32,000 nt of DNA from Methanobacteriota archaeon (GCA_002723045.1 PBNI01000030.1:1-32000); one strand, 5' to 3'; shown: positions 4,716 through 28,083, counted from the stretch's first letter. Numbers and translations: made by a program. Notes: generated by a model not told the origin, from the sequence alone.

Positions 4716-4746
4716 ATTTAGACCCGAAACGCATTTTGTCCTTAAA

Positions 4747-4762
4747 TTTAGGGTTACCTAAA
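4747..4762. promoter_or_regulatory. Palindromic operator candidate TTTAGG-GTTA-CCTAAA (DtxR/IdeR iron-box-like)
   Basis: 6-4-6 inverted repeat centred in the 77-bp divergent intergenic region. It is flanked by A/T-rich TATA-like stretches (TTAAATTT on the left, AAATAT on the right), each about 27-35 nt from the respective ATG. The 17-mer ATTTAGGGTTACCTAAA (4746-4762) recurs exactly at 10382-10398. Confidence 0.6.
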
Positions 4763-4792
4763 TATCAAAAGTCAAATCAGACCCGAAAGACC

Positions 4793-5464: not shown

Positions 5465-5488
5465 TTTTGGCAAAAATTTTGGCAAAAA
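5465..5488 (+). repeat. Perfect 12-nt tandem duplication TTTTGGCAAAAA x2 at the phnC stop / phnE start junction
   Basis: Read directly from the sequence. It encodes MAKI-LAKI and supplies two in-frame TTG codons (5467, 5479). Confidence 0.9.
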
Positions 5489-8557: not shown

Positions 8558-8842
8558 ATGTTCCTCGATAATTTCACAACAATGGGCAGCGAATACACAG
8601 GTTGCTACGATATCTCGATCCACAAGATAGACGAGACATCCCCCAGAGGTGCGTGCGGCTCTGAGATTCTTTCCAATTCTCTGCATTCAACTGGAGTTTC
8701 CAGAACCACCTCGCAGAGTCAACTAGGTCACCTTTCCACGCTAATCGGCAATTTGCCAAACCAGTTGTTAGTCAATTTCTTAGTTGAAAATTAAGAATGA
8801 CCCATAACAACATACTAAGTGTACATTTTTCTTCATAAGAGC

Positions 8843-9259
8843 ATGAACAATGTAGACGTACATCTTGCTGACACAGATCGTTCTACTGCCAGTCGAATAT
8901 TCTGGTTCATTCTCGGCCTCACCTCAATGACACTGGGATTGATTGGTATCCCGGTTCCAGGCCTGCCAACCACCCCTTTCATGATTCTAGCAGCAGCTTG
9001 CTTCGCTCGTTCCAGTCAGAGATTCTATGATTGGGTAATCAATAACAAATTGTTCGGCACTCACGTTAAGAGCTACAGAGAGGGCAATGGAATCCCAAAG
9101 AGGAGTAAGCCGATGATCCTGGCAACAATGTGGACCTTTGTTTTGTTCGCGGTCCTAGTTGCCATTCCAGATGATGTTCCCATCTCCAAGGCCGCCACAC
9201 TGATTCTAGCATTAATCGGGACCATCTTCATTCTTAGGATTCCTAGTTCTGAACATTAG
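8843..9259 (+). CDS. YbaN/DUF454 family inner-membrane protein
   Basis: GLIGIPVPGLPTTPFMILAAACFARSSQRFYDWV is the DUF454 signature. Start uncertain (GTG 8819 or ATG 8843). The 3' end overlaps hemH by 17 nt, convergently. Confidence 0.75.
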   Translation: MNNVDVHLADTDRSTASRIFWFILGLTSMTLGLIGIPVPGLPTTPFMILAAACFARSSQRFYDWVINNKLFGTHVKSYREGNGIPKRSKPMILATMWTFVLFAVLVAIPDDVPISKAATLILALIGTIFILRIPSSEH

Positions 9260-10334
9260 AGAATCCCTTGTCGATCAACTTTGAAAGTCCTGATATCCAA
9301 TCTGGATTATCGTTGAGACATTTGACTACGGAGAAATGATTTCCACCATGACTGATGTAGTGCTCACGGACCTCAATGTCCAATTCCTCCAGCGTCTCTA
9401 AACCGTCAGCCAGGAATGCCGGAGAGACAACAACCACGTCTAGATCCTTCTTCGCCAAGTCTTCCACCACAGATAGAGTGGAGGGCTTCAGCCACTTCGC
9501 CGGCCCCAGCCTACTCTGGAAACTTATCGACCAAGCGTCATCAGACAATCCCAATTCGTCAACCACAGACTTTGCGGTCATACTGCAATGATGGGAGTAG
9601 CACATCGAGTTCGCCTCGTCCCTTCGGGCACAGCAACCGTCAACTTTCTGGCAGTATGAACCGGTTTTGTCAGCCCTCTTGACATGAGATATTGGCAGTC
9701 CGTGGAACGAGAATAGTAAGTGAGACCTCTCATTTAGGTGGGGTCTGATAGATCTCACCAGTGGCATGATGAACTCAGGCTCTTCTTCGAAGTGGCCCAG
9801 TTCGAAGAGATCCGGACTCCAACCAATTTCTCTCAATTGCCGAAAAGCCTCTTTCATAGAAGACTCAGTCGTGGCTTGAGCATGGTGTGGGAAAAGCGGA
9901 GCCAGTAGCAACTCCTCAACCCCTTCGGATCTGAGACTCTGCAAAGCAGATCCGATGCTCGGATTGCCATACCTCATCCCTACCTCGCACGCTACGTCCC
10001 CCATCTCCAATTGGAGCTTCTCAGCCATTCTTCTGGTATAGACTCGGAGAGGAGAATCACCATCCATCCAGATACTAGCATACCTTGGTGCTATGTTTCT
10101 CGGCCTAATCCTCAGAATTACCCCCCTAACCAGAAGATGCCTTAGTATGGTAGGAATGTCAATGACATCTGGATCCAGCAAGAATTCTCTCAAGTACTCC
10201 CTGACTGAACCCACGGTCGCCTCATCGGGCGTTCCAATGTTCATCAGCAGAACGCCTCTTTTTACCACAAACTCCACGCTCCAAAATCTAGTTATAATCG
10301 TAAGTTTCAGAAACTCTGTTTTCGAAAATAACAT
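9243..10334 (-). CDS. hemH: Ferrochelatase with an internal Cys-rich insert
   Basis: GVLLMNIGTPDEATVGSVREYLREFLLDPDVIDIP, SLRSEGVEELLLAPLFPHHAQATT and LLFSFHGLP are ferrochelatase-like. Start uncertain: GTG 10361, ATG 10334, or GTG codons near 10283-10295 just before VKRGVLLMN. Confidence 0.85.
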   Translation of the reverse strand: MLFSKTEFLKLTIITRFWSVEFVVKRGVLLMNIGTPDEATVGSVREYLREFLLDPDVIDIPTILRHLLVRGVILRIRPRNIAPRYASIWMDGDSPLRVYTRRMAEKLQLEMGDVACEVGMRYGNPSIGSALQSLRSEGVEELLLAPLFPHHAQATTESSMKEAFRQLREIGWSPDLFELGHFEEEPEFIMPLVRSIRPHLNERSHLLFSFHGLPISHVKRADKTGSYCQKVDGCCARRDEANSMCYSHHCSMTAKSVVDELGLSDDAWSISFQSRLGPAKWLKPSTLSVVEDLAKKDLDVVVVSPAFLADGLETLEELDIEVREHYISHGGNHFSVVKCLNDNPDWISGLSKLIDKGFSNVQN

Positions 10335-10382
10335 TTCTATTGAACAAATCAATATGGTCACTGCAGTAGAACAAAATTGAGA

Positions 10383-10398
10383 TTTAGGGTTACCTAAA
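10383..10398. promoter_or_regulatory. Second copy of the palindromic box TTTAGG-GTTA-CCTAAA
   Basis: Identical to 4747-4762. Lies in the hemH / lipoprotein divergent intergenic region, followed by the TATA-like TTATAA at 10401-10406. Confidence 0.6.
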
Positions 10399-10425: not shown

Positions 10426-10441
10426 TTTAGGGTGCCCTAAA
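10426..10441. promoter_or_regulatory. Third box, perfect 7-2-7 palindrome TTTAGGG-TG-CCCTAAA, abutting the lipoprotein ATG
   Basis: Read directly; it ends 1 nt before ATG 10442. Confidence 0.55.
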
Positions 10442-11695
10442 ATGAATGGTAAACTACTAAGCTTAATGATGACAATACTGATGATGGCCTCAGCCCTTGC
10501 TGGGTGTGCAGGAGACGATGTTGACCTGGATGCAGAGGACGGGGGCTACGAATACGCCTCCAACGTCGACAACCACCGCATGCTGATGGGAGATGTCTGT
10601 GACATCAAGGATCTATCTGGAGCATACGACTGGGACGGCGTTAAGGACATCTATGAGAACGGAGAGCACGCAGAGAAGTCCGACGGTTCCTACAGGACCC
10701 TAATGGGCTTCGCTGATGCTTCGGGCAAGAACCACGCCTATGACGCATTCTATGGTGCAGACGGGTCATGGCATGACTTCGTGAACGCCGCCATTAGCGG
10801 TTCTGGGGCATTCGATGGAGAGTCCGACACAGTCAGAGACCAAGCCACAGAGAAGGGAATCCAGAACGGAGTCATGACTGCATACGCAATCCACGAGCTA
10901 AATGCCGCTATTATCAAGGCAGAGGCTGGAAACTGGGGCCCAGATGATGCTCAGCACGCCTGGGACGAAGGATGGGCATTCTATCACGGACCAGATGATT
11001 CTAACCACGACTACGACGGATGCGGTCCATACGCCACTGCCGACAAGAGGGCTGGAAACTTCGGGACCGCCAACTCTGGCGGCACCGCCGCAACTAACGT
11101 AGCTACATTGGCTGCAATGAATGCCGGCCTCACCGCTATGCAGAACGAGGACATGCAAGGGCTAGTCGACGCACGAGATGAGATTCTCAAGAACATCGTC
11201 ATCGTCTATTCACAGGCTTCCGTAAGGTACGCATCGAAGATGACAGACGACCTAGCCGCTGGAGACACCTCAGACTACGACAAGCACCAGGCAGAGGGCC
11301 ACTCCTTCTACAGGGTCATCGAGGCATACGTTGCTGAGTACACTTCGATCTGCTACAACATGGTCTCCCACACGGTATCCTCGGATACCTCACAGGCATC
11401 TTGCGAGGCATGGATGTACTTGGAGAACTACACGTCTTCCAACGACCCAGATGGGGAGGAGTTCACCGGCTGCTACAACTCTGTTACACACTCTCAGCAC
11501 GAGGGAATGTCACAGGAGGAGTGCGAGGCTTTCGGATGGTACGCAAACTACTACTCCGACAAGATCGTAGCAATGTTCGACCTATCCAACGATGGAGACG
11601 CTTCCGCAGATTACGAAGCTGACATCAGGGCTTGGCTACAGCCTGCATGGGATCATTACGGGATTACCGCAGGAGACATAGGAACTCTACAGTAA
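10442..11695 (+). CDS. Secreted lipoprotein of unknown function (candidate iron-regulated metal/haem-binding protein)
   Basis: ATG 10442 gives MNGKLLSLMMTILMMASALAGC (signal plus lipobox-like). Acidic, His/Trp/Tyr-rich and helix-looking. Internal duplicate: ICYNMVSHTVSSDTSQASCEAWMY and GCYNSVTHSQHEGMSQEECEAFGWY. Confidence 0.8.
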   Translation: MNGKLLSLMMTILMMASALAGCAGDDVDLDAEDGGYEYASNVDNHRMLMGDVCDIKDLSGAYDWDGVKDIYENGEHAEKSDGSYRTLMGFADASGKNHAYDAFYGADGSWHDFVNAAISGSGAFDGESDTVRDQATEKGIQNGVMTAYAIHELNAAIIKAEAGNWGPDDAQHAWDEGWAFYHGPDDSNHDYDGCGPYATADKRAGNFGTANSGGTAATNVATLAAMNAGLTAMQNEDMQGLVDARDEILKNIVIVYSQASVRYASKMTDDLAAGDTSDYDKHQAEGHSFYRVIEAYVAEYTSICYNMVSHTVSSDTSQASCEAWMYLENYTSSNDPDGEEFTGCYNSVTHSQHEGMSQEECEAFGWYANYYSDKIVAMFDLSNDGDASADYEADIRAWLQPAWDHYGITAGDIGTLQ

Positions 11696-11706
11696 GAGTA
11701 ACGTTG

Positions 11707-11759
11707 GCGGGGGGCGCATCACCCCAGCATCATTTTCGGTTTCCGCAAACCGGCCCCCC
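11707..11759 (+). terminator. Nested hairpin downstream of the lipoprotein gene
   Basis: Outer stem CGGGGGG (11707-11713) / CCCCCCG (11753-11759). Inner stem CGGTTT (11736-11741) / AAACCG (11746-11751) with loop CCGC. T4 tract at 11732-11735. Confidence 0.35.
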
Positions 11760-11815
11760 GTCAACAACACACCTATACTAGAACAGGAATATTGAACGAA
11801 ATTTTCGGTGTAAGG

Positions 11816-14164
11816 ATGAGAATAGGAATACTGCTTGTATCTATATTACTGATTTCCTTTATCTCTCCAGTAAGTACTTCCGAAGAAACCGAACAACAGA
11901 CGTTCACCCTTTCTGGAAACGTATTCTCCTCTAGTGGTAATCCTGCAAATTCGACTTCGATAAAGGTTGACTCCATGGAGTCAACATGGTCCTCCAACGG
12001 GGCTTACTCATTCGCGGGCATCACTCCGGGAGAGCACACCGTCAGAGCCTACTTCATGAATGATGGACACACTGTGGTGTACAGGAAGATAATTGTAGAA
12101 TCCGACATGGAACTTGATTGGTACGAGGGAAGAAATTGGATTACATTCGAAGTTTTAGAAGATGATACGAACATCCAAGATTCAGAACTCAACACAGTCG
12201 AACTGATTGAGACATCTGAGAATATTTCAACTCAGTCAGGAAGGGGTGAGTTCGGGCCATACCAAATTGGAGAATACTTCACACTGATGGCATACTACGG
12301 AGGAATTGACCAGTCCACGCAGTTTGTTCACTTCAGGATGGAAGCCGGATCTTCTTCAGAACACGGCCCTAATGATTTTCATTTCAATCATGGAAAGAAT
12401 AGTAGGTATGGCTTTCTGACCGATTTATATGGAAACCCCATCGAGGGAGCTTCCGTTATTTACGGATCAACTAGCTCGATAACAAACTCAGATGGATTCT
12501 TCCTTTTCCAGAATCTAGATGTCGGCACCATTCAGAACTTATCTGCTTCTAAATGGGGGTACCAAATAGTTGATCCGATTAGTACCGAGATTACGCACGG
12601 ACAAGGTTGGCTGAACATCACCTCGACAGTAGAGACAAACTTGCCCGACTACGCAAATTTCACCACTCAAATCATTACATCCCAACTGGAACAGATCACT
12701 ATTGATTGGAGTGGTGGGGCATATACTGATTTCTACTCCCTATACCTAGGGGAAGAGCTAGTTTACAGAGGTGAGATGGAGAGTTTTGATTTCCTACCCG
12801 AACAGTCAGGAAACTATCAATTCAGAATTGAATCGACAAATTCTAACGGCTCTAAGATCAATCCAAAGGATTTGCAGGTCATCGTTCTACCTAGCCAACC
12901 AAACTCCGATTTGTGGTCTCCGGGTATGAGTTGGAATTACTCTCTCGTTTCTACTCCAGAATTCTATCAAAACAAGACCTATACCTCGATTGGATCAGAG
13001 TCAATACTGGATTCATTCGGTAACAATCGCTCCTCGTATCTCCTCAGGGTTTCGGACGAAGACTACGAGGAGGGGGAGAAGGCCTTCCGATGGGTGGACT
13101 CGGAGGGCCTCATGACCATTCACACCTTCTGGGCAGATGCCCCTTCGTCGTCTTCTTACTACCAGGAGGGTTTCCTGGGTTGGAACTTCACAGATTCAAC
13201 AGGAATTCCAGTGAACCCCCTCCATCAAGTTGCAGACGGTGAACTCAATCTTCACTTCAATCGGACAAACATTATCGGAGTCCCTGGCCATCCAAACGGC
13301 TACGATGATACCACTAATTCTGTGATTGTAACTCATGGAGTCGAACTAACTACTGCTGCAGGCACATTCACCACGACTCATCTGGAAATCACTGACAACA
13401 ACGATGGCATCGTATCTTGGGAGATGTGGTACAATGAGACGGTTAGGAACTGGGTCAAGATCATAGATAGACTACCAGGTTCTCACTCAGACATGGTTAT
13501 CCGGGAGTTGACCTCATTCGAGGTCCCAATCACCCCCCAATTCATTACTGAAGATAATAGAAACTTTTCCGATGACGATGTAGAGATAGAATGGGCACAA
13601 TTCCCAGGGGCTCAGAGATACAAACTAATTGAGAACGGGCAAGTTGTATACATTGGAGAAGACTCTAGAATAAACCTCCCCAATAGACAGGACGGAGAGT
13701 ACAATTTCCAGATTATTGCAGAGATGACAACTGGTCAGATCATTCAAGGAGAAAAAATTTCTATTGAGGTATTCTTTGTTCTAGAACCCCCTGTATTTCT
13801 TTCCAATTCACATTCTACAATAACCTCGGATGAGTCAATCGTGACTTGGTCATCTGTGGAAGGAAGAGCCATGTATACCGTTTTGGTAATGCCAGAAGAC
13901 GGCCCATCTTACGAAGCATACAATGGTTACGAGAATCAGACATTGCTGGAGGATCTAGACACAGGAATCAATAGAATTCGGGTGAAGGCAACTCTGGAAA
14001 ACGGTAAGGCTTCAGAATTTTCAGACTCGATTTTCATCACATTCGAAAGGTCAGAGGACAACCTCCCCTCCCCATCAGCTCTTTCCACGCTCCTCCTCCT
14101 TGTTTTCGTATCCAGATTTTCAACAACAAGGAGGAATGAAAGTTGGCAACACGATCTAAAATAG
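11816..14164 (+). CDS. Cell-surface protein with carboxypeptidase-regulatory-like and FN3-like repeats and a C-terminal LPSPS-helix-RR anchor
   Basis: ATG 11816 is preceded by GGTGTAAGG. Signal MRIGILLVSILLISFISPVSTS. CarboxypepD_reg-like segments FTLSGNVFSSSGNPANS...GAYSFAGITPGEHTV and GFLTDLYGNPIEGASVIYG...SDGFFLFQNLDVG. Three FN3-like units (IDWSGGAYTDFYSLY.., VEIEWAQFPGAQRYKL.., IVTWSSVEGRAMYTVL..). Its 3' end overlaps the next gene by 22 nt. Confidence 0.75.
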   Translation: MRIGILLVSILLISFISPVSTSEETEQQTFTLSGNVFSSSGNPANSTSIKVDSMESTWSSNGAYSFAGITPGEHTVRAYFMNDGHTVVYRKIIVESDMELDWYEGRNWITFEVLEDDTNIQDSELNTVELIETSENISTQSGRGEFGPYQIGEYFTLMAYYGGIDQSTQFVHFRMEAGSSSEHGPNDFHFNHGKNSRYGFLTDLYGNPIEGASVIYGSTSSITNSDGFFLFQNLDVGTIQNLSASKWGYQIVDPISTEITHGQGWLNITSTVETNLPDYANFTTQIITSQLEQITIDWSGGAYTDFYSLYLGEELVYRGEMESFDFLPEQSGNYQFRIESTNSNGSKINPKDLQVIVLPSQPNSDLWSPGMSWNYSLVSTPEFYQNKTYTSIGSESILDSFGNNRSSYLLRVSDEDYEEGEKAFRWVDSEGLMTIHTFWADAPSSSSYYQEGFLGWNFTDSTGIPVNPLHQVADGELNLHFNRTNIIGVPGHPNGYDDTTNSVIVTHGVELTTAAGTFTTTHLEITDNNDGIVSWEMWYNETVRNWVKIIDRLPGSHSDMVIRELTSFEVPITPQFITEDNRNFSDDDVEIEWAQFPGAQRYKLIENGQVVYIGEDSRINLPNRQDGEYNFQIIAEMTTGQIIQGEKISIEVFFVLEPPVFLSNSHSTITSDESIVTWSSVEGRAMYTVLVMPEDGPSYEAYNGYENQTLLEDLDTGINRIRVKATLENGKASEFSDSIFITFERSEDNLPSPSALSTLLLLVFVSRFSTTRRNESWQHDLK

Positions 14165-15237
14165 CCATTTTCCAGTCAGGCATCATCTTTCTATGTGCTA
14201 TTGGGGCATGGCAGTTTTCATCCATTATCTCCGAAACCGATGAATCTGGGTCAATTTCTGTAGTTGATTCCAACGGTGTAGGGCACTTCTTTGATGAATC
14301 TCCAGATAGAGTTGTTCTGACAAATACTTACGCTGCGAGCGTGATGAGAATGTTGGGGATAGACAACTCCGTGATTGTTGGAGTATCTGGCGACTTCTAC
14401 GACGAGACTCTGTGGCCAGAACTCTCTCAAAGGGATATGGTACAGCAATCTGCACATTCTGAGATTGATTTCGAGGCGCTCTTGGATTCCCGACCGGACG
14501 TCTACATCGTTTTCGCAACAAATGGAATGGTCGATACCAATGCAATCAGAGAGAAACTTGAACCTGTAGGGATTAGAGTCCTAGCCCTGGATTTCTACAA
14601 GTACGATTCACTAAGAATAGAGATTGGGGTGATGGCAGAGTTATTTGGCAAGCAAGTAGAGGCCGAGACACTGTTTTCTGAGTTTGACACTATCGAGGCC
14701 CTAGTCACAAACCGAACTTCACAGCTCACAGAATCTCAGAGGCCGATTGTAGTTATGGAGCACCATGCATCACTAACTCGAGATCCCGTGGTTCTAACTG
14801 GCACTTCTCAATGGACCGACATGATACACAAGGCAGGCGCGAAAAACGTGTTCGCCGATCTCCCAGGGCATACCACCCATGTAGACATGGAAGCGATTCT
14901 GGATGCAAACCCCGACGTGCTAATGTTCGATGGAATCGTTTTCGACATCGGATTCAATTCCTTCGACAATGAAAGTAAATGCGATACCCATTTCGATTTC
15001 ATCAAAGAGAGGCCCGGTTTCGACAACCTAAACGCCGTTAGCAACGATCGAATGGCTATAATGTCGGGAGAATTTGCAGGCCCAATGATGATTCATGGCC
15101 TCCCAACTCTAGCCAAACTAATCCATCCAGAGATTTTTTCTGATATCGACGCTGACTACTTCCTGGACGAATATTTCTCCAATTACCATGGAATCGAAAG
15201 AATGGGGAAGTTCGTTTGTACTTCAGGGGGCGACTAA
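14143..15237 (+). CDS. ABC substrate-binding protein, cluster A-2 (FecB/HmuT/BtuF type; Fe-siderophore, haem or corrinoid)
   Basis: TTG start 8 nt after a strong AGGAGG (14129-14134). N-terminal anchor IAIFQSGIIFLCAIGAW. PDRVVLTNTYAASVMRMLGI...SRPDVYIVF...IRVLALDF is typical of the Peripla_BP_2 family. Confidence 0.8.
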   Translation: MATRSKIAIFQSGIIFLCAIGAWQFSSIISETDESGSISVVDSNGVGHFFDESPDRVVLTNTYAASVMRMLGIDNSVIVGVSGDFYDETLWPELSQRDMVQQSAHSEIDFEALLDSRPDVYIVFATNGMVDTNAIREKLEPVGIRVLALDFYKYDSLRIEIGVMAELFGKQVEAETLFSEFDTIEALVTNRTSQLTESQRPIVVMEHHASLTRDPVVLTGTSQWTDMIHKAGAKNVFADLPGHTTHVDMEAILDANPDVLMFDGIVFDIGFNSFDNESKCDTHFDFIKERPGFDNLNAVSNDRMAIMSGEFAGPMMIHGLPTLAKLIHPEIFSDIDADYFLDEYFSNYHGIERMGKFVCTSGGD

Positions 15238-15240
15238 GCA

Positions 15241-16278
15241 ATGGAAACGATATCAGAGAAACATATTGCAAACTCGAAATTTCAGATTTTAATGATTGCC
15301 GCACTATCCCTCGCCACACTCATTTTCGCACTACTGGCAATGGGGTGGGGGTCATCTTCAAACCTTGACATGACGGCAACAATGAGAATCCTCCTTGGTT
15401 TGGATGAAGCAGATGATTTACAGTCAGACATTCTTTGGAAACTAAGACTCCCAAGGATATTGATGGCAATTATCGCGGGAGTGGCTCTTGCTACTGCTGG
15501 AGCACTAATGCAAGGCTGCCTAGGAAACCCACTCGTCTCCCCTCTGACTCTTGGAGTGGCTTCTGGTGCTGCTTTAGGGGCCGCATTCGCCATTATTCTG
15601 GATTTTTCTGTCCTACCAGACTTGGCAATAGTGGCGAACTCCTTTCTTTTCTCATTACTTGTCGTCGGAATAATAATTCAACTAGGAAAAATGCGATCCA
15701 TTTCCGCTGAATCCTATATTTTAGTTGGTATTGCAATCACTTTCATTGCAGGTGCCATCGTTTCGACAATGCAGTACTTTGCCACAGATGCACAACTATC
15801 TCAATTGACACATTGGTCATTCGGAAGCCTATCAAGACCAACTCTTTCCAATGTAATTTGGATAGGGGCAGCAGTGGTATCTCTGTTGCCAATGGCAATG
15901 TTGTGGTCTTGGGATTTGAATGCGATGTCCTTGGGGGGGGATGACTTTGCCATCTCCACTGGAGTAGATCCCGAATCTACTAGGAAGAACATACTGATCC
16001 TCTCAGCCTTGATGACATCAATAGTGATCTCGTTTACTGGACTGATTGGATTTGTAGGACTAGCCGCGCCGCACATGAGTCGCCTGATCATTGGTAATGA
16101 CTACAGGAAATTGATACCATGCTCCGCTGTCTTCGGAGCTTTCCTGATGCTCTTTGCAGATACCGTCGGAAGAATTCTATTCGCACCAATTGTGATTCCC
16201 GTGGGAATAATGCTATCCATAATCGGTGGGCCACTTTTTATGTATCTTCTACTGAAGTATAGGGGGGCGGGGTTCTGA
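15241..16278 (+). CDS. FecCD-family ABC permease (HmuU/BtuC-like)
   Basis: LRLPRILMAIIAGVALATAGALMQGCLGNPLVSPLTLGVASGAALGAA is the family signature; multi-TM. Confidence 0.9.
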   Translation: METISEKHIANSKFQILMIAALSLATLIFALLAMGWGSSSNLDMTATMRILLGLDEADDLQSDILWKLRLPRILMAIIAGVALATAGALMQGCLGNPLVSPLTLGVASGAALGAAFAIILDFSVLPDLAIVANSFLFSLLVVGIIIQLGKMRSISAESYILVGIAITFIAGAIVSTMQYFATDAQLSQLTHWSFGSLSRPTLSNVIWIGAAVVSLLPMAMLWSWDLNAMSLGGDDFAISTGVDPESTRKNILILSALMTSIVISFTGLIGFVGLAAPHMSRLIIGNDYRKLIPCSAVFGAFLMLFADTVGRILFAPIVIPVGIMLSIIGGPLFMYLLLKYRGAGF

Positions 16279-17060
16279 CAAGTTTACTTCAGGTAAAGGA
16301 TCTAAGTTTTAGATGGGGCGATAGAGAAGTTCTAAGGAATATAAATTTCGAAGTTGAGCCAAATCAGACAATAGCCATCCTTGGAAAAAATGGAGTCGGG
16401 AAAACCACATTGATCAAATGCCTCAACCGAGTCCTAATTCCTCATTCAGGAACCGTCAAATTTTCTTCACGAGATATTTCAGAAATGAGTCTAATGGAAC
16501 TATCCAAAATGTCTTCTTATGTCCCACAATCAGTCAGAACCAGCTTTTCAATGGACGTTTTTGATGTTGTTCTTCTCGGCCGGAGGCCACATATCTCGTG
16601 GAGAGTTTCATCAGAGGATAGAGAAGCAGTTAGCCGCACTCTGAGTCTTCTGGGACTGGAGGAATTTGCCTTCAGAAAGTTCGACAAACTTTCTGGTGGA
16701 GAGAGGCAGAGAGTAATAGTTGCCAAGGCTGTAGCACAAGACCCCTCCCTCTTTCTTTTCGATGAACCGACCAGTGACCTAGATTTACGAAATCAGATTG
16801 AGGTAATGAAGAGAATAGTCGAGATTGTTTCAGATAAAAAATCTGAGAAATCTGCTATTGTTTCCATTCATGATATCAATATAGCAGCAAGATTCTCTGA
16901 AAGAATTATCCTATTGCACGAAGGAGAAGTAAAGGCAGATGGTTCTCCATCAGACGTCCTAAACGAAGACAATATTGCAGAAGTATTCGGAGTAACTTGC
17001 GAAATCGTAGACCAAACAGATGACTCGCCAATGAGGGTCTTGATCAAAGATGAGGTGTAG
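16275..17060 (+). CDS. ABC ATP-binding protein (FecE/HmuV-like) with a non-canonical or disrupted start
   Basis: The frame is open from 16263 and encodes ..LLQVKDLSFRWGDREVLRNINFEVEPNQTIAILGKNGVGKTTL. The first in-frame ATG/GTG/TTG is TTG 16410, after Walker A. CTG 16275 overlaps the permease TGA (cTGA). Signature LSGGERQR, Walker B LFLFDEP, H-loop SIHD. Confidence 0.8.
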   Translation: MTSLLQVKDLSFRWGDREVLRNINFEVEPNQTIAILGKNGVGKTTLIKCLNRVLIPHSGTVKFSSRDISEMSLMELSKMSSYVPQSVRTSFSMDVFDVVLLGRRPHISWRVSSEDREAVSRTLSLLGLEEFAFRKFDKLSGGERQRVIVAKAVAQDPSLFLFDEPTSDLDLRNQIEVMKRIVEIVSDKKSEKSAIVSIHDINIAARFSERIILLHEGEVKADGSPSDVLNEDNIAEVFGVTCEIVDQTDDSPMRVLIKDEV

Positions 17061-17115
17061 TAGAAGGATATTATGAAAAATTGGCACATTGGTCCTAGCA
17101 GAAATAGAATAGAAA

Positions 17116-17595
17116 ATGGAGAAGAAAAGAGGCAATAAAATGAGAGATAGAAACTTGCTAGTAATTTTTGGAACAGAGACTGGAAACGCTGAGGAGTTGG
17201 CCGAAGACGCGGCCATTATGGCAGCAAAGCATGATCTTGAAGCCAGCGTAATGGATATGGAGGACATAACTCCAGATGATATCTCAGGTTCGAAGAGATT
17301 GATTGTTGTATGCAGCACTTGGGGTGAAGGGGAGCAACCCGTTAACGCCCAAGATTTGTACGATTCAGTCTCCGAATCTGACGACACTGCCATGGAAGGA
17401 GTTAATTTTGGAGTCCTAGCCCTCGGAGACACGGCATTCGAGTTCTTTTGCGAGTCGGGAAAGGAATGGGATTCAATACTCGAAGAGAAAGGCGGAACGC
17501 GGATCAAGGAGAGAATTGACTGTGATACTGACTATGATGACTATGCAGAAGAATGGATACAAGAAACTCTCCAAATATTGAAGGAAATCGAATAG
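17116..17595 (+). CDS. Flavodoxin
   Basis: LLVIFGTETGNAEELAED (FMN phosphate loop), VVCSTWGEGEQP, GVLALGDTAFEFFCESGK. Alternative start ATG 17140. Confidence 0.8.
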   Translation: MEKKRGNKMRDRNLLVIFGTETGNAEELAEDAAIMAAKHDLEASVMDMEDITPDDISGSKRLIVVCSTWGEGEQPVNAQDLYDSVSESDDTAMEGVNFGVLALGDTAFEFFCESGKEWDSILEEKGGTRIKERIDCDTDYDDYAEEWIQETLQILKEIE

Positions 17596-17607
17596 GAGAT
17601 ATGGAAA

Positions 17608-18444
17608 ATGAGCGAGAAAGAAAATGGCGGATCAAGTATACCCAGACATGCACCTCCAAAGGGAGCCAGAACACAAGAACAAGAACTCCTCTATGACCCA
17701 AATATTCCGACTCCCACTCACTCAGAGTTGGCGAGAACAATGGTTAGCAAGATTGGCACAGGCACCTTGTGCACAATGTCTACTGAGCCAGATGGGTATC
17801 CCTATGGTTCGTTCGTCACCTTTGCAATCCTTGAAGGGAACCCAATCTTCCTGATTAGCTCTCTAGCTGAGCACACCAAGAACCTCACTGCCTCTTCCAA
17901 GTCCTCGCTACTAGTCGCGGAAGCGGGTGAAGGAAACCCCCTTGCTCTGGGTAGGGTAACACTCATTGGAGACTGCTCAAGACTGTCCGACGGAGAGGTT
18001 GACTCAGCTAGGATTGAATTCCTGGAAAAGCATGAAAGTGCCTCATTCTACGTAGATTTCAAAGATTTTCATTTTTACAGATTGCAAGTCTCCTCCGTTA
18101 GGTACATTGGTGGTTTTGGCAGAATGTCATGGGTCGACGAGCAGAGTTGGTTTGAAGCAGAGTCTGACCCCCTCTCTCCTTTCTCGAATGACATTATTGA
18201 ACATATGAACGAAGATCACAGAGATGCAATGATGATTTGCTGCCAGAATCTCAGTAAAGCAAAAGATGCCTCAGATGCAGTAATGACTGGTATTGACAGA
18301 TACGGGTTTGAGATGTCTGCAATTACTTCTGACGGCCCAAGGCCAATCAGGCTAGCATTCAGAAACGAGGCAACGAATTCCGAGGAAGCAAGGTCAGAGA
18401 TAGTCTCATTGGTTAAGGATGCTAGAAAAATTTCAGAGACATAG
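17608..18444 (+). CDS. HugZ/HOZ-like protein: pyridoxamine-5'-phosphate-oxidase-like split barrel plus a DUF2470-like C-terminal domain (candidate haem-degrading or haem-binding)
   Basis: ARTMVSKIGTGTLCTMSTEPDGYPYGSFVTFAILEGNPIFLISSLAEHTKNL (split-barrel N-terminal part). IIEHMNEDHRDAMMICCQ...MTGIDRYGFEM (DUF2470-like). GGAG lies upstream of the ATG. Confidence 0.55.
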   Translation: MSEKENGGSSIPRHAPPKGARTQEQELLYDPNIPTPTHSELARTMVSKIGTGTLCTMSTEPDGYPYGSFVTFAILEGNPIFLISSLAEHTKNLTASSKSSLLVAEAGEGNPLALGRVTLIGDCSRLSDGEVDSARIEFLEKHESASFYVDFKDFHFYRLQVSSVRYIGGFGRMSWVDEQSWFEAESDPLSPFSNDIIEHMNEDHRDAMMICCQNLSKAKDASDAVMTGIDRYGFEMSAITSDGPRPIRLAFRNEATNSEEARSEIVSLVKDARKISET

Positions 18445-18459
18445 AATTCTGCTAAACTC

Positions 18460-20244
18460 CTAAGGCACCAAAAGCACGTTCTCATAAGACCTATCGACTA
18501 GAGGAACTATGAGTTCTGAGAGCGATGTTAGGACGTGGACGGTGCAGGCATTTCCACAGGCCGGAGCTAGGTAGTCCTCACCAGAATCAGTAAGAATAAA
18601 CTTGAGCCCATCTCCAGGACTTACAATAGCATCAATCGCTTGGAATTCCATCATCATAGTGATTTCCTGACCAGGAACAACAGTTTGAGGTTCCGAGCCT
18701 CCCTCGTGGTACCGAACATCCATAGTTGCGTGACCCAGTCTTACGCCCGTTCGTAGGTTTTGCATTTCGATAAAAACCTGCCCTCCATCGAACGAAGGCA
18801 CCGCTGAAAGATGCAACGAGACCAAACCTGAAATGTGCATTCGAAAATCCGGATTTATTTCTGGGCACTCCACTGTAATGCTTTGTCCACCGCCTACCAC
18901 GGGTATTCCTCCCCCGATCACAGAAATTCCACCAACGAAAGCACCATCGTTTCCACAGTCTCCCATGTCCACAAAATAATCCTCGGAGTCTCTTGGGGGC
19001 CAACTTTGCTCTATTCGCCACTCCCCATCGTTCCTTTGAATCTGTGCGACCAAATCCGGCTTGGGCCCCCTTTCCTGTAAATAGTACTCGAACCACTCAA
19101 ACAAATCCTGAGCCCAATCCCATCTAGTCATATTAGCCAGAGCCTCCATCCCATAACCACTATCGCTCTCTTCGTGTTTTGACCACTGGTCAGGGTAGTC
19201 GTGCCCCCATTGCCCTAGCATCCCCCTTACCTCAAAACCAGCATCAACATATTCGGAATACCAATTGGTTCCAGGAGGGCCTCCAAAGACCTGATGAGGG
19301 TCTACGTTCCAATCCTGCATCCCTTGGACCCAGTAAATACTGCCATTCCAATTCATGAATGCCTTGTCTATGTGGCTCCTCTCTTCGTAGTAGTTTTCCA
19401 TATAGGGATCCATCTCTCCACCGATATATGTCACAGGACCAGCAAACAGACCTTCTGCAATGTCCGGACAAACGTTGTCAAAGTCATCAGAATCATAGTC
19501 AACGGTGCTGGAGAAGTAATTCATGTGCATAATCTGTGATCTCGCCTCTGCGCTTCCGTTCTTGTACAATAGTGGATGTAGGGCTGTAGTCCCCGATATT
19601 GGCACTATAGTCTTCAGATGTTCGCTCCCCATTGCCGCAGCTTCCCATTGAGTCGCACCTTCGTAGGATTTCCCATAGAGTCCGACATTCCCATTGCTCC
19701 AATCCCGTGTTCCTAACCACTCTACCGCAGCATGAATTCCCAGACCTTCTCCGTTACCCCTGTAGTCGAAGCACCCGCTGCTCTCTTCAGTACCAAACAC
19801 CGCTACTTGGGCGAATGCATAACCATGGGGAACAAAGTTCTCGAAGATGAATTCTCCTCTACCAGCACTGACAATACTGGTGGGAGCCGACTCGTCTCCG
19901 GGTGTTCCGTAGGAGAAATAAGGAGAAATAACAGCAATTACAGGAACTTTCTCGCCTTCTTCAGTGTTGCTTGGCAACCAGTATGATAGATGAACTTCAG
20001 CCGAACTGGGACCAGTCTCCCAGACCGAAGATGTATCTACTTCTATCAACGCCTCCTGGACATCTAGGGAGTGGAATGGCCCAGGTTCCAGAACCTTGCT
20101 GAAAGATCCGCTAGTGTCCCAACTAATCTCATGCCTATCCCAAATGTCTGGGTAATGATCATCAGTTTTCACTTCTGAACCTAAGCATCCAGAAAATACT
20201 CCACTAAGTAGCAGTGCGACTACTGCTACTGAATGCGCTCTCAT
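18460..20244 (-). CDS. CocE/NonD / X-Pro dipeptidyl-peptidase (S15) family hydrolase, lipoprotein-like signal
   Basis: Signal LLLSGVFSGC. NVGLYGKSYEGATQWEAA (GxSYxG nucleophile elbow); GYAFAQVAVFGTEESSGCFDYRG. Confidence 0.75.
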   Translation of the reverse strand: MRAHSVAVVALLLSGVFSGCLGSEVKTDDHYPDIWDRHEISWDTSGSFSKVLEPGPFHSLDVQEALIEVDTSSVWETGPSSAEVHLSYWLPSNTEEGEKVPVIAVISPYFSYGTPGDESAPTSIVSAGRGEFIFENFVPHGYAFAQVAVFGTEESSGCFDYRGNGEGLGIHAAVEWLGTRDWSNGNVGLYGKSYEGATQWEAAAMGSEHLKTIVPISGTTALHPLLYKNGSAEARSQIMHMNYFSSTVDYDSDDFDNVCPDIAEGLFAGPVTYIGGEMDPYMENYYEERSHIDKAFMNWNGSIYWVQGMQDWNVDPHQVFGGPPGTNWYSEYVDAGFEVRGMLGQWGHDYPDQWSKHEESDSGYGMEALANMTRWDWAQDLFEWFEYYLQERGPKPDLVAQIQRNDGEWRIEQSWPPRDSEDYFVDMGDCGNDGAFVGGISVIGGGIPVVGGGQSITVECPEINPDFRMHISGLVSLHLSAVPSFDGGQVFIEMQNLRTGVRLGHATMDVRYHEGGSEPQTVVPGQEITMMMEFQAIDAIVSPGDGLKFILTDSGEDYLAPACGNACTVHVLTSLSELIVPLVDRSYENVLLVP

Positions 20245-20284
20245 GGTACCTCCACTAATCCATAGGGCAAATAATTGGCGTTGC

Positions 20285-21307
20285 TCACTTCACTTCGTAT
20301 GCCCCGGCCATCTTTCTGACCGCTTCCTCTACCTCGATGTCCCCATCGAGGAGGCTCCCCAGTGTGCTCAGGAATGGAGTGGGACGGCCCATTCTTTCAG
20401 ATCTGTTCAGAAACATTCTGGTCGCTCTAACACCCTCTGCAACCATGTGCATCTCCTCGAGGGACTCCTCCAGGCTCTTCCCCGAACCGAGCTTCTCACC
20501 TAGAGTCCGGTTCCTGCTCCGGGGGCTGGTTGCCGTGACGTACAGGTCCCCTATCCCAGCCGGTCCGAATGCTGTCTTCGGGTCGGCCCCCATCTTCTCG
20601 AGCAGCCCGATCCCCTCGCTGTACCCGGAGAGGACCAGGGCCGCCTTGAGGTTGTCACCGCCTATTGTGTCCTTGAGTCCGTCTACGAGCCCGCATGCCA
20701 GTGCTACGCAGTTCTTGTACGCCCCCCACAGCTCCGCTCCATTGGGGTCCTCCGCGGGCGTAAGGATCAGGGAGTCTGTCGAGAGGCGTTCTGCGACCCT
20801 CTCCGCAATTCGGATGTCGTGGCAGGCAACAAGAGCGTTCGTGATTACGCCACGAGCGACTTCGGGGGCTATGGTCGGGCCAGTCATAACCACTACTTGG
20901 TTGGACAATCCTGCGTCAGAGAGCCTCCTCTCGATCGCATCCGAGATCATCCCGGACCCGCCTTCGTCCGATGGTGCTAGGCCCTTCGCCAGATCGACTA
21001 GCAGATGGGATGGCCTGAGGCTTGGTATGAGCATGTCAACAACCTCCAGTATGACCGAGCTTGGGAGGGCCAGAACCAGAATCTCGCAACTCTCGGTGAC
21101 ATCCGATATCTCCATCGTGCAATCCATCTCTGGGATCTGGTGTCCCGGCAGGTACTTCTTGTTCTCGTGGACCGTCATCATCGACTCGTACACATCCTGC
21201 TCCACCGTCCAGCCCAGGACGTTGTGCCCGTCGTTGCACCACACTAGTGCGAGGGCCGTTCCCCAGTTGCCAAGCCCGAGAACCCCTATTCGTGCCATTT
21301 TAGCCAT
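20285..21307 (-). CDS. gpsA: NAD(P)H-dependent glycerol-3-phosphate dehydrogenase
   Basis: IGVLGLGNWGTALA (Rossmann fold), MTGPTIAPEVARGVIT, GAYKNCVALACGLVDGL, GIGDLYVTATSPRSRNRTLGEKLGSG and VAEGVRAT all parallel E. coli GpsA as I recall it. Confidence 0.9.
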   Translation of the reverse strand: MAKMARIGVLGLGNWGTALALVWCNDGHNVLGWTVEQDVYESMMTVHENKKYLPGHQIPEMDCTMEISDVTESCEILVLALPSSVILEVVDMLIPSLRPSHLLVDLAKGLAPSDEGGSGMISDAIERRLSDAGLSNQVVVMTGPTIAPEVARGVITNALVACHDIRIAERVAERLSTDSLILTPAEDPNGAELWGAYKNCVALACGLVDGLKDTIGGDNLKAALVLSGYSEGIGLLEKMGADPKTAFGPAGIGDLYVTATSPRSRNRTLGEKLGSGKSLEESLEEMHMVAEGVRATRMFLNRSERMGRPTPFLSTLGSLLDGDIEVEEAVRKMAGAYEVK

Positions 21308-21399
21308 CTGCGCGGCGCATAGACCATGTTATGACCCTATGGGGGCCTTTGACACGGATGCGTTGACTTCTTGGTGGGTAATTATTCGCACGGGGCATA

Positions 21400-21484
21400 G
21401 CAGGGGTACCCGAGTGGTCAAAGGGGCTGGGTTTAGGTCCCAGTGCGTAGTGCTTCGCAGGTTCAAATCCTGCCCCCTGCACCA
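21400..21484 (+). tRNA. tRNA-Leu (anticodon UAG), class II, CCA encoded
   Basis: Acceptor GCAGGGG / CCCCTGC. Anticodon stem CTGGG / CCCAG with loop TTTAGGT (TAG at 21434-21436). 13-nt variable arm. T arm GCAGG-TTCAAAT-CCTGC. Discriminator A plus CCA. Confidence 0.9.
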
Positions 21485-24400
21485 TCACTTGATCCTGATC
21501 TTCTTCGAGCGGATGCTGGATATCCCCCGGCTCTTCCAGCCAACCACCCTGTAGCCCATTATGCCGATGAAGGATATCGAGATGGCTATGATTGCCCAGT
21601 TCTCGGTGGTGAAGGGCCTGAATGGGTCTCTCGACCATTGCTCGTCTCCGAGGACCCCGTCCTCAAGGTCAGGGATGCCATCGTTGTCGTCGTCGTCGTC
21701 CAACAGGTCTGGAATGTCGTCACCGTCGAAGTCAGGTGCCTCCGAGCCATCGAAGCCACCGCCGTCGGAGTCAACCTCGTCCACGACTATATCGTCTCCC
21801 AGCAGGGCCTGAATCGGGCACCCAAGATCGTTTCCTGGAATGGCTAGGAGGTTGAGGTAGTCCTCGGTGCTGGGGCCGATGCCAGTCAATAGTGGGCATT
21901 CGTCGGCGTTATTCCCAACTCCATCGCGATCGCTGTCCATCCACTCTGTCGGGTCGTCGGGGAAGGCATCGGAGTTCGGCCCTTGGTCCGCATGTCCGTC
22001 ACCGTCCGAGTCGGACCACCTCCAGTCATCTAGCGGGAACGCATCGGTGCCGTCCGCACCATCGCTGTTCATGGTGCAAGGAACCGGATTTAGCCAGCCA
22101 TCGCCGTCACAGTCCGTGTCTACGTTGTTCCCTATGCTGTCCCCGTCGGTGTCATCCGTCTCGTTTGCATCGAATGGGAAGGCATCCCCCTTGGCGGAGG
22201 CGAAGCAGTCCGGGATGCTGTCCCCGTCCTGGCTCGGGCCGCTGTTCGATGGGGGGACAAGGTCAGGTCTCCAGTATGTCGTGTCATCGCATCTGCCGTC
22301 GTTGTCGTCATCCGCATCGGAATTGTCTCCGATACCATCGCCATCGGCATCCGACCACTCGTTGCCGTCGTTGGGGAACACGTCGAAGATGTCCCTTATT
22401 CCGTCCCCGTCGTCGTCTTGGTCCGCGTTGTCGCCGATCCCATCGCCGTCTTTGTCCTCCCACTCGCTCTGGTCCGAGGGGAACGGGTCATCCGTGTCGT
22501 TGACGCCGTCGTTGTCGTCGTCCACGTCGATGCTGTCTGGTATCCTGTCTCCATCCGAGTCGGCGGAGACGTCGGGATCCAACCAGTCGTAGTCCTCGTT
22601 GTTCGGGACGCCGTCGTTGTCTGCATCGGTATCGAACTGGTCCGGGATGCCATCCCCATCGAAGTCAGAGAAGCACAAGTCGAAGAATGTGGAGGCTTCC
22701 TCCAATGTCGATTGGCCGCTCGGGCAAGGTGTCTGGGAAGTGGATTGTGCCTCCGGAACGTAGTAGCCCCTGGATGCTGCTGTGCATGCGGATTGCCCCT
22801 TCAGGCTGGCGTAGTAACCGGCAACACAACCAGTCTGGGTGGTCTGACCAGACTGTGGGACCATGAAGCCCCTGTCCGCTAGAATGCAAGTCGTTTGGGA
22901 TGGGTCTGGCTGATATGATCCCGGTGCACATGGCAACTGCTCCTTGGACCCATGACCCAGGTCGACAGAAGTGGGGCTGTCTCTGTTGGAAGAGGTCCCG
23001 TCACCAATCTGGCCGGCTTCGTTGGCCCCCCAGCAATGCAGGCTAGCATCAACTAGGATGACGCAGGAATGCCTCTGGCCCACTGAGACCGATGTCGCGT
23101 TCTCGCTCAGGCTGACTATTGTCGGTACCGTTCTGCCAATCTGCGATCCATCGCCTAGTTGACCGTTGCTGTTGTCCCCCCAGCATGCGACCTCTCCCGA
23201 GTCGAAAAGGGCGCAGCTGTGGAATAGTCCAACTTGGACGGATGAAAGCAATTGGTTGGTGCTCAGCGGTACTGCCATAGGTGAGTTTGAGTTTCCATTG
23301 CCGCCGTTCCCTAATTGCCCGTATGCGTTGTAGCCCCAGCAGAACATGGACCCATCATTCATGCCAAGACAGGTATGCATTGACCCCGCATCGAGGGAAA
23401 CCGCGCTACTGTTGCTTGGGATTGAGATTTCTACTGGAGTAGACCTATCGGAGTTAGTCCCGTCCCCAAGCTGACCGTTCCAGTTGTCCCCCCAGCACAT
23501 CACTGTTCTGTCTGACATTATTGCACAGGTGTGGTATGACCCCGTGGAGACCAATATCGCTGATTCTCCACCCAAGTCCGAGAGAACTGGGCTTGACCTA
23601 TCTTCTGTGGTCCCGTCCCCCAGCTGCCCGTTGCTGTTCTGGCCCCAGCACTTGACGCTGTGATCGTTCAGGACCGCGCAGGTGTGGGATTCCCCGGACG
23701 AGATTCCGAGCGCACTCTTCCCATGGCCCAGATCGACTGCCACCGGGGATGTCCTCTCTATTTCGGTCCCATCCCCCAGCTGCCCGAACTCATTGGAGCC
23801 CCAGCAGCGGACTGAACCGTCATCGAACACCGAGCACGTGTGGTAAGAGCCTGCTGAGACCCCTATCGCTTTCCTGCCTAGTGGCATGGAAGACTTCTCA
23901 GGCTCTAGGCTCGGTGCCCTGGAGCCATCACCCAGCTGACCGTTGCCGTTGTCCCCCCAGCAGCTGACCGAGCCGTCGTCCAGGATCGCACAGGAATGCG
24001 ATGCCCCAGATGTCATCTGTAGGAGGACTGGTACGCTGTGACCAGATTCCGCCCATTTGCAGGCATCAACTGAGCTCTGGCCAAACAGGTCATTGTACTG
24101 GCCAGCAGGACAGGGCGTTCCCTCGGCGGCTCCCGATGCCGGAACGTAGTATCCCGGTTCCGCGTCATCGCAAGAGGTCTGGCCAGAGAGCCTCTGGAAT
24201 TCCCCAACGTCACATTCGACTTCTGAGCTCTGCCCGTACAAGACAACGTAGTGCCCTGGGTTCGCTGGAGTCATCACGGTGTTCCCTGTGCCGCTAACGA
24301 AGTATCCTGGTGTGGCCTGTCTGCAGGTGAACCTGCCATAGTAACCAGAAGAGCAGTCAGCCGCTACGGTGGGATTGCTGTCATCGCTATCCTCGGTGGA

Positions 24401-27979: not shown

Positions 27980-27981
27980 AC

Positions 27982-28002
27982 TCCTCCTACGAAGTAGGAG
28001 GA
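27982..28002 (-). promoter_or_regulatory. Perfect 9-bp hairpin pairing GGAGGA with UCCUCC immediately 5' of the giant gene's ATG
   Basis: TCCTCCTAC-gaa-GTAGGAGGA on the + strand. On the mRNA strand it reads UCCUCCUAC-UUC-GUAGGAGGA-GU-AUG. Confidence 0.35.
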
Positions 28003-28083
28003 CATTAAAATTGCCTCCGATCTTAATCTTCGACTCCTCCAAATTCACCTCACCTTCCAGTACCCTCGTTCGCAAAATCTATT

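Follow-up and report, generated by a model that had tools for sequence, protein, structure and literature searches.

The still uncultured archaea of Marine Group II rank among the most numerous microorganisms in the surface waters of the ocean. How these organisms obtain haem and iron is the question raised by a 32,000-nucleotide (nt) stretch of DNA (the window; GCA_002723045.1, PBNI01000030.1:1-32000), the source of which is a Marine Group II archaeon (Poseidoniales). Its plus strand carries, at 11816-18444, six closely packed genes for a surface protein, a substrate-binding protein, a permease, an ATPase, a flavodoxin and a split-barrel protein. The original prediction, made from the sequence alone, regarded them as an Isd-like operon for haem uptake. 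Literature searches on haem transport in Marine Group II or other archaea found no characterized archaeal haem-uptake system, and we know of none. We propose that the locus is probably an iron-regulated operon for haem uptake and use, in which haem would be imported and its iron then released by a protein of the HOZ type. In a correction to the original prediction, the operon proves to belong to a more extensive iron-regulated island of genes.

Results

The surface-protein gene (11816..14164, +) encodes 782 amino acids (aa) from an ATG, or 790 aa from a TTG at 11792. It overlaps by 22 nt (14143-14164) the gene of the 364-aa binding protein (14143..15237, +), which has an N-terminal membrane anchor and matches Pfam Peripla_BP_2 (6e-28); the overlap was reproduced by independent gene calls. 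These are followed by a 345-aa FecCD-family permease (15241..16278, +; Pfam FecCD, 4e-82), an ABC ATPase of 261 aa from a CTG (16275..17060, +; Pfam ABC_tran), a short-chain flavodoxin of 159 aa, or 151 aa from 17140 (17116..17595, +; Pfam Flavodoxin_1), and a 278-aa protein (17608..18444, +; Pfam CREG_beta-barrel, PNPOx_N and DUF2470). All six open reading frames were confirmed together with the 22-nt overlap, and the Pfam matches uphold the FecB/FecCD/FecE class assigned earlier to the transporter.

The predicted CTG start of the ATPase, where CTGA overlaps the permease stop by 4 nt, is well supported, since the ABC_tran domain begins at residue 20 when counted from 16275 and since no ATG, GTG or TTG lies in that frame between an in-frame TAG (16260-16262) and 16410, the first position at which a canonical start opens the frame. 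The homologous site in relatives holds an ATG (L007, with an ATGA overlap) or a TTG (L009), and the independent assembly L001 likewise reads CTG there (L001 12343). Automatic gene calls shorten the ATPase to a 191-aa form without the Walker A region, an effect attributable to the CTG start. The overlaps of 22 nt and 4 nt suggest translational coupling and were counted in favour of an operon.

A scan of species-representative genomes gave 77 loci, on which sixteen window proteins were mapped by tblastn; synteny was counted only where a contig extends far enough. Identity of the surface protein across these genomes is 36-87%. The binding-protein gene directly follows the surface-protein gene in 69 of 69 genomes, with the permease next in the conserved order in 65 of 65 and the ATPase after it in 64 of 64. 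Because it is conserved in the 77 species-representative genomes, the arrangement is not due to chance. Co-occurrence in related genomes had been proposed as a check, and the surface-protein gene proved syntenic with the transporter not only in these 69 genomes but also in another archaeal order. The gene of the split-barrel and DUF2470 protein lies directly 3' of the ATPase gene in 54/58 genomes and somewhere downstream in 47/48. The flavodoxin gene, taken earlier as an operon member, is present in the window but optional (directly 3' of the ATPase in 31 of the 58), and an FEA1-related lipoprotein gene stands directly 5' of the surface-protein gene in 34 of 55.

In total, 297 surface-protein homologues were found, all full length (about 770-820 aa), and the named ones are labelled Euryarchaeota, Poseidoniales or Thalassarchaeaceae. 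The window surface protein shares 50% identity with a Thalassarchaeaceae-labelled (MG-IIb) homologue, compared with 36-46% for Poseidoniaceae-labelled ones. An identical binding protein was present on contigs of at least 106 metagenome blocks. Nearly all of the 77 loci are labelled Poseidoniales or bear older or broader archaeal names. The four with other labels (L040, L055, L083 and L030) come from two contigs of a 'Verrucomicrobiales' metagenome-assembled genome (MAG), a 'Rhodobiaceae' MAG and a 'marine group III' MAG; a typical Marine Group II locus in such MAGs probably reflects binning or labelling errors.

Relatives outside Marine Group II bear most directly on the substrate. A word-indexed homologue search with the window binding protein returned Marine Group II sequences only (at least 65% identity) and no outgroup. 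Outgroup loci were found by an exhaustive search, described below, with a profile of the surface protein's central domain and by a search seeded with the binding protein of Methanomassiliicoccus luminyensis, a cultured gut methanogen. The five loci are those of M. luminyensis (L088/L092), three metagenome contigs (L090, L093 and L095) and a MAG labelled Dehalococcoidia (L094). In M. luminyensis (L092; GCA_000308215.1), a divergent gene for a DtxR-family regulator is followed by genes for a surface-protein homologue, a Peripla_BP_2 protein, a FecCD permease, a radical-SAM protein, an ABC ATPase and a HemS/ChuX-like protein. The order in L090, L093 and L095, where the surface homologues are full length, is surface protein, binding protein, FecCD and ChuW, while the L094 contig opens at the binding-protein gene and continues with FecCD, ATPase, ChuW, DUF454 and flavodoxin. 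A full-length surface-protein homologue is thus visible in four of the five loci, with 27-32% identity to that of the window. The window binding protein is 40-44% identical to those of L090, L092, L093 and L095 and 29% identical to that of L094, but only 24% identical to a second, FhuD-like binding protein of the same M. luminyensis locus; the permeases of the window and M. luminyensis, the only pair compared, share 48% identity.

All five radical-SAM proteins exceed the curated ChuW/HutW cut-off (TIGR04107, 400 bits), scoring 490.2 in L088/L092, 458.1 in L090, 503 in L093, 508 in L094 and 474.5 in L095. The HemS/ChuX-like protein of M. luminyensis scores 154.3 bits as HutX (TIGR04108, cut-off 110). 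The window itself holds no ChuW/HutW or HutX gene. The uptake block is therefore constant and only the haem-degrading enzyme changes, from an oxygen-dependent HOZ in the aerobic marine archaea to an oxygen-independent ChuW/HutW in the five other loci. M. luminyensis is a cultured anaerobe, and the other four hosts are presumably anaerobic too. In bacteria, ChuW/HutW and HutX belong to uptake operons for exogenous haem. The pairing of one transporter block with either ChuW/HutW or HOZ is the strongest argument that its substrate is haem, and the presence of true ChuW/HutW and HutX equivalogs in the relatives strengthens the preference for haem expressed in the original prediction.

The 278-aa protein contains a CREG_beta-barrel/PNPOx_N region (residues 38-182) followed by DUF2470 (194-268). 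In the PDB it matched the haem binder MSMEG_6519 of mycobacteria (5bnc; 1.2e-47 over residues 33-273), AtHOZ1 of Arabidopsis (2.3e-32), PtHOZ1 of poplar (8.5e-32) and also PA4388, and HugZ (3gas) with an E-value of only 1e-4. The curated HugZ model (TIGR04109) gave 70.1 bits against a cut-off of 240 and aligned only the DUF2470 part (residues 196-275 to profile positions 2-78), a failure due to the reversed domain order, with the split barrel first and the DUF2470/DRI domain second. HugZ proper was ruled out on these two grounds. By domain order and matches, the protein is a member of the HOZ/MSMEG_6519-type (HOZ-like) group, so that of the HugZ-type identity proposed earlier both domains and the likeness to haem-degrading proteins stand and the assignment to HugZ itself does not. 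Grosjean et al. (PMC11602992) defined the HOZ-like architecture, called MSMEG_6519 a haem-degradation protein and reported that prokaryotic HOZ-like genes adjoin FecCD, transferrin and BPD transporter genes. The window protein has this architecture, an FMN-binding-type split barrel and then DRI/DUF2470. Its His89 aligns with the conserved His of the 'AVHTK' segment of AtHOZ1, which we take, assuming that the numbering of the chain and of the full-length protein differs by 29 residues, to be the His135 (HugZ His136) that contacts a propionate in that paper, and the DRI domain retains its H-x4-H pair ('EHMNEDH' versus 'SHMNKDH'). A role as a haem-degrading or haem-handling enzyme is proposed on this basis. 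The flavodoxin, which resembles the FMN domain of CysJ/MioC (NCBIfam/Pfam), is its proposed electron donor.

A second, divergent HOZ variant, about 30% identical to that of the window, replaces the usual one in several lineages (L008, at 15948-17640; L019, L022, L023, L041, L043, L050, L060-L061, L064-L067 and L069-L070). A gene for a PKD-domain protein is inserted ahead of it in L008.

The operon shares a palindrome with the surrounding iron genes. TTAGG-N4-CCTAA occurs 122 times in 80 loci (1.26 Mb), compared with about 1.4-1.6 expected, and lies 5' of Fea1 (45 sites), a gene for a transferrin-like binding protein (24), the surface-protein gene (12) and a PhnC-like gene (9). The 12 boxes 5' of the surface-protein gene belong to genomes without Fea1 in front. 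In the window, a pair of boxes (10384-10397 and 10427-10440) lies just 5' of the FEA1-related gene, which heads the gene string, and a third copy (4748..4761) lies between a gene for a transferrin/PhnD-like binding protein and that of a PhnC-like ATPase. No box directly precedes the surface-protein gene there; since the nearest ones precede Fea1, the operon may be read through from the Fea1 boxes. Four copies of the identical box are present within 21 kb of the M. luminyensis locus (0 expected), two of them 5' of the haem operon and two 5' of the FhuD-like operon (L092 9931-9979 and 16319-16376), beside the DtxR-family gene. This regulator gene adjoining the operon encodes Fe_dep_repress/FeoA domains; no DtxR-family regulator gene was found in the window. 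The palindrome resembles the bacterial DtxR/IdeR iron box and is probably the operator of a DtxR-family repressor. An Rfam scan of the window detected no riboswitch, including the cobalamin type, and no other regulatory RNA, only a transfer RNA (tRNA) at 21400-21481. Between the Fea1 and surface-protein genes, the window holds a G/C-rich inverted repeat (11700-11760; CGGGGGGC…GCCCCCCG), which may be an attenuator or a processing hairpin.

The transporter proteins were compared with NCBIfam models, the curated cut-offs of which were used for family membership. The best match of the ATPase was 'heme ABC transporter ATP-binding protein' (NF010068; 215.2 bits, cut-off 261) and the second best a corrinoid ATPase, also below cut-off. 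That of the permease was BtuC, with 194 bits against the 334 required for a BtuC equivalog. The binding protein matched best an archaeal PGF-CTERM-anchored binding protein, a putative F420-0 transporter binding protein, FhuD-like models and IsdE, with scores of 37-53 bits where about 300-390 are required (IsdE, TIGR03659: 37.6 versus 298.65). Its family profile found in the PDB 9hrj (2e-29, the best), the YiuA-like 6b2x, 4mo9, MolA (3psa), IsdE (2.5e-11) and BtuF (~5e-3). A grouping with BtuF, which the original prediction had suggested looking for, was therefore not seen, BtuF being far behind both the best relative and IsdE. The transporter sequences by themselves neither assign a substrate nor support vitamin B12.

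After a signal peptide, the surface protein has N-terminal CarboxypepD_reg-like (prealbumin-like) beta domains and a first FN3-like domain; the central domain follows, then a pair of FN3-like domains, and a helix with a basic tail forms the C-terminus. Pfam returned CarboxypepD_reg and a weak Y_Y_Y/FN3-like match on the 782/790-aa protein. The AlphaFold2 model of the full protein is all-beta (predicted local distance difference test, pLDDT, 80.8) with a helix at residues 754-767 (14075..14116, +), the C-terminal transmembrane anchor that precedes the basic tail. The signal peptide and the anchor are present in all homologues compared. Among 44 aligned homologues, every one ends in a hydrophobic helix and an Arg/Lys tail, and no conserved sorting motif was found at the C-terminus. 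The 'LPSPS' segment, considered as a sortase- or PGF-CTERM-like sorting signal, was rejected as not conserved. Since only the helix and the basic tail are conserved there, the protein is membrane-anchored and not wall-sorted. The earlier description of its modules was correct except for the LPSPS signal, a plain membrane anchor being found in its place, and for the central domain (~360-575), which had been missed. As predicted, there is no NEAT match (Pfam, E<=0.01); no known haem-binding domain was found in the protein.

The central domain (residues 360-575; 12893..13540, +) is the most conserved region in the homologue alignment and is the proposed ligand-binding core. Modelled alone it gave a pLDDT of 89.2 and a predicted template modelling (TM) score of 0.85, and it matches no Pfam family. 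Foldseek detected a weak likeness to half-barrels of the YmcC (DUF3108-type), LolA, RseB and ependymin-like kinds (best E 3e-3, TM ~0.5), and distant relatives of the domain give DUF3108 matches below threshold. A fold search of the PDB with the whole 782-aa model yielded only generic multi-Ig/FN3 proteins (TM ~0.1). The LolA/YmcC-like half-barrel class typically holds hydrophobic ligands. When the profile of the domain (~210 residues) was compared with 1.84 billion cluster representatives, only 36 clusters were found at E<=1e-3, one of them containing WP_020424289.1 of M. luminyensis. Divergent members keep the central domain, the two FN3-like domains and the C-terminal anchor, and only some have the N-terminal CarboxypepD_reg-like domains; the minimal form is 438 aa. 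The family is previously undescribed and has no described relatives.

The residues invariant in all groups, both HOZ- and ChuW-linked, are W367, G370, M371, W373, W426, W456, G516, F518, W535, Y539, V547, K548, D551, L565 and P574. This mostly aromatic set (W367, W373, W426, W456, W535, F518 and Y539, together with M371 and K548) would be in keeping with a pocket that accommodates a flat, hydrophobic ligand, and Met, Tyr or Lys could serve as iron ligands. H480, H492 and H557, invariant in the Marine Group II proteins, sit in low-confidence loops of the full-length model; they were rejected as universal haem ligands because they are lost in the ChuW-linked relatives. Haem capture by the surface protein is plausible on this evidence, at slightly less than an even chance. 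We tentatively suggest, with rather more doubt than belief, that the 782-aa protein is the first member of a new family of haem receptors on the cell surface, confined for the most part to the archaeal phylum Thermoplasmatota, in which the half-barrel domain would capture haem and hand it to the ABC importer.

The operon lies in an iron island that also contains the FEA1-related lipoprotein gene, genes for two transferrin/PhnD-like binding proteins with a PhnC/PhnE-like ABC system, DUF454 and ferrochelatase. The 417-aa FEA1-related lipoprotein (10442..11695, +), a co-regulated upstream neighbour and not part of the transporter, scores 367.8 bits with NCBIfam NF038033 (cut-off 250) and matches Pfam Fea1, an algal domain of low-iron-inducible iron assimilation. 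The two binding proteins encoded beside the PhnC/PhnE-like system (3639-4715, -; 4736-6327, +; 6650-8557, +) each match both Pfam Transferrin and Phosphonate-bd, and this system is possibly a ferric-iron importer.

The ferrochelatase gene (9243-10361, -) is divergently oriented in the window; in L008 (8846-9880) it has the same orientation and stands immediately 5'. It was rejected as an operon member and is treated as context, being adjacent in 4 of the 26 genomes with wide flanks; the enzyme could perhaps insert metal into scavenged porphyrin or work in the reverse direction. Subclades of MG-IIb are predicted haem auxotrophs (Kim et al., 10.1101/2021.01.11.426183), and the presence of a ferrochelatase beside the island is intriguing in this light. 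DUF454, a small YbaN-like membrane protein, is encoded beside the operons in three unrelated contexts (window 8819-9259, +; L091 1065-1463; L094 4373-4861, between ChuW and flavodoxin) and may have a role in haem handling. On the opposite strand, downstream, the gene at 18460-20244 (-) encodes an S15 (X-Pro dipeptidyl) peptidase whose signal (…FSGC) resembles that of a lipoprotein; this peptidase is a common neighbour in that orientation (for example in L007, L010, L012-L015, L024, L028, L080 and L086), and one may speculate that it helps to free haem from haemoproteins. The G+C content is 55-60% at 20001-27000 and 43-47% in the operon. The high-G+C region holds the tRNA gene and a gene for a 2196-aa secreted S8 peptidase/RCC1-repeat protein (21485-28075, -).

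Discussion

The reading that we favour, haem import followed by HOZ-mediated iron release, draws on the synteny, the HOZ matches, the enzyme swap, the shared palindrome, the topology of the surface protein and the haem auxotrophy predicted for MG-IIb. In this scheme, the surface protein would be secreted and stay attached to the cell surface through its C-terminal helix, and its aromatic-rich central half-barrel would capture haem and pass it to the membrane-anchored binding protein. The permease and ATPase are of the FecCD class, and comparative genomics suggests that they import haem. In the cytoplasm, the HOZ-like split-barrel/DRI protein would bind haem, open it oxidatively and free the iron, with electrons from flavodoxin where this is present, as characterized homologues suggest. 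Under iron-replete conditions, transcription would probably be repressed by a DtxR-family regulator acting on the TTAGG-N4-CCTAA boxes. The anaerobic relatives would have retained the uptake block and exchanged the oxygen-dependent enzyme for ChuW/HutW and HutX.

Several results weigh against this scheme. In NCBIfam, no curated family cut-off is reached by the binding protein, the permease or the ATPase. The nearest solved relatives of the binding protein (9hrj, the YiuA-like 6b2x and MolA 3psa) are of unclear or non-haem specificity, and its PDB matches include no Gram-negative haem binder and IsdE only at 2.5e-11. The central domain had no Foldseek match at E<=1e-3, and the histidines H480, H492 and H557 are not conserved in the ChuW-linked relatives. 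Certain members of the HOZ family are haem sensors and not enzymes (PMC11602992). In L009 (16547-20616), L062 and L082, the flavodoxin and HOZ genes lie instead inside the operon of the transferrin/PhnD-like transporter; from this placement, HOZ seems to be tied to the iron island and not strictly to the FecCD-type transporter.

This last observation suits the main alternative, in which the transporter takes up iron as a ferric chelate, whether with a siderophore or in some other complex. HOZ would then be merely co-regulated and would recycle the haem of the cell itself during iron starvation, with flavodoxin standing in for ferredoxin as it commonly does when iron is low. The class of the transporter is a generic one, annotations of the closest solved binding proteins point to iron or siderophores, and the whole region is an iron island with FEA1-like and transferrin-like genes under one operator. 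In the anaerobic relatives, however, ChuW/HutW invariably accompanies this binding-protein subfamily, with HutX in addition in M. luminyensis, which has a separate FhuD-like system next door with a binding protein of only 24% identity. The HOZ gene, moreover, directly follows the ATPase gene in 54/58 genomes. We therefore consider uptake of a ferric chelate unlikely. Import of a corrinoid (vitamin B12) or another non-haem tetrapyrrole would agree with the best permease match (BtuC) and the second-best ATPase match (a corrinoid ATPase), both below cut-off, and with the general need of Marine Group II archaea and methanogens for corrinoids. It is very improbable nevertheless, as the BtuF match is marginal (E~5e-3), no cobalamin-related gene is adjacent, the neighbours being the haem-specific enzymes HOZ, ChuW and HutX, the operator is common to iron-uptake genes, and the Rfam scan found no cobalamin riboswitch.

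It is also conceivable that haem is imported but that the surface protein is a non-binding structural accessory, either a stalk that places the binding protein beneath or through a surface layer or an adhesin to haem-rich particles. Most of the protein consists of generic Ig/FN3/CarboxypepD_reg-like modules, a known haem-binding domain was not found in it, and its candidate ligand histidines are not universally conserved. On the other hand, the part common to all members, including the 438-aa form, is only the central domain with two FN3 domains and the anchor, and it is this domain that is most conserved and rich in invariant Trp, Tyr and Met. The ligand-holding habit of LolA/YmcC-like half-barrels, a matter of general knowledge joined here to a weak fold match, points the same way. 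A purely structural role is accordingly rather unlikely, although less so than the ferric-chelate alternative.

If haem uptake by this operon is confirmed, archaea would have their first described machinery for acquiring haem. A haem importer that is conserved and under iron control would account for the way in which Marine Group II archaea, including haem-auxotrophic lineages of the open ocean, obtain haem and iron, and would give these archaea a part in the marine haem cycle. The exchange of HOZ in aerobes for ChuW in anaerobes would be a clear example of non-orthologous displacement following oxygen. Since a homologue of the surface protein stands beside ChuW/HutX and a DtxR-type regulator in the cultured M. 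luminyensis, the hypothesis is directly testable.

The proposed system resembles the bacterial haem ABC importers (HmuTUV/ChuTUV with ChuW-ChuX, HutWXZ of Vibrio, ChuZ of Campylobacter and HugZ of Helicobacter) in the succession of a class-III binding protein, a FecCD-type permease, an ATPase and a haem-degrading enzyme under iron control, and its anaerobic relatives carry true ChuW/HutW and HutX equivalogs, as bacteria do. It differs in that the transporter parts score below the curated cut-offs for haem transporters, no outer-membrane receptor is present, and the operon is led by a surface-protein family not seen in bacteria. In contrast to HugZ/ChuZ, the enzyme of the aerobic archaea is of the HOZ type with the reversed domain order. 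With the described HOZ family (MSMEG_6519, AtHOZ1 and PtHOZ1B; PMC11602992), the window protein shares the domain order, the conserved His, the H-x4-H pair and the gene neighbours FecCD, transferrin-like and BPD; it is archaeal, whereas archaea go unmentioned in that paper. In the reported hmu operon of Fusobacterium nucleatum (PMC10404700), a protein of the flavodoxin superfamily, HmuF, lies beside the haem-degrading radical-SAM protein HmuW within a haem-uptake operon, an arrangement similar to the ChuW-DUF454-flavodoxin order of L094. The window flavodoxin, by comparison, is CysJ/MioC-like and would pair with a HOZ-type enzyme that depends on oxygen; about half of the Marine Group II genomes lack this flavodoxin.

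The relays of Gram-positive bacteria, namely the Isd system of Staphylococcus (NEAT receptors, IsdE/IsdF and IsdG/I) and HtaA-HmuTUV-HmuO of Corynebacterium, likewise have the gene of an anchored surface protein directly 5' of that of an anchored binding protein of a FecCD-type importer, a clustered haem-degrading enzyme and a single-membrane envelope. Unlike these, the archaeal surface protein contains neither a NEAT nor an HtaA/CR domain (Pfam). Unlike Isd, it is held by a membrane helix with no sortase or other conserved sorting signal, and the degrading enzyme belongs to a different family. The likeness to Isd is thus one of logic and gene placement, not of descent. The idea of an analogous but unrelated surface relay is retained in its placement logic and in the lack of NEAT; the wall-sorting signal is not, and the IsdE score of the binding protein (37.6/298.65) is low. 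ABC haem importers linked to a haem-degrading enzyme are already known as a kind of system; what appear to be new are the occurrence of one in archaea, the obligatory and undescribed surface-protein family and the oxygen-dependent swap of the enzyme.

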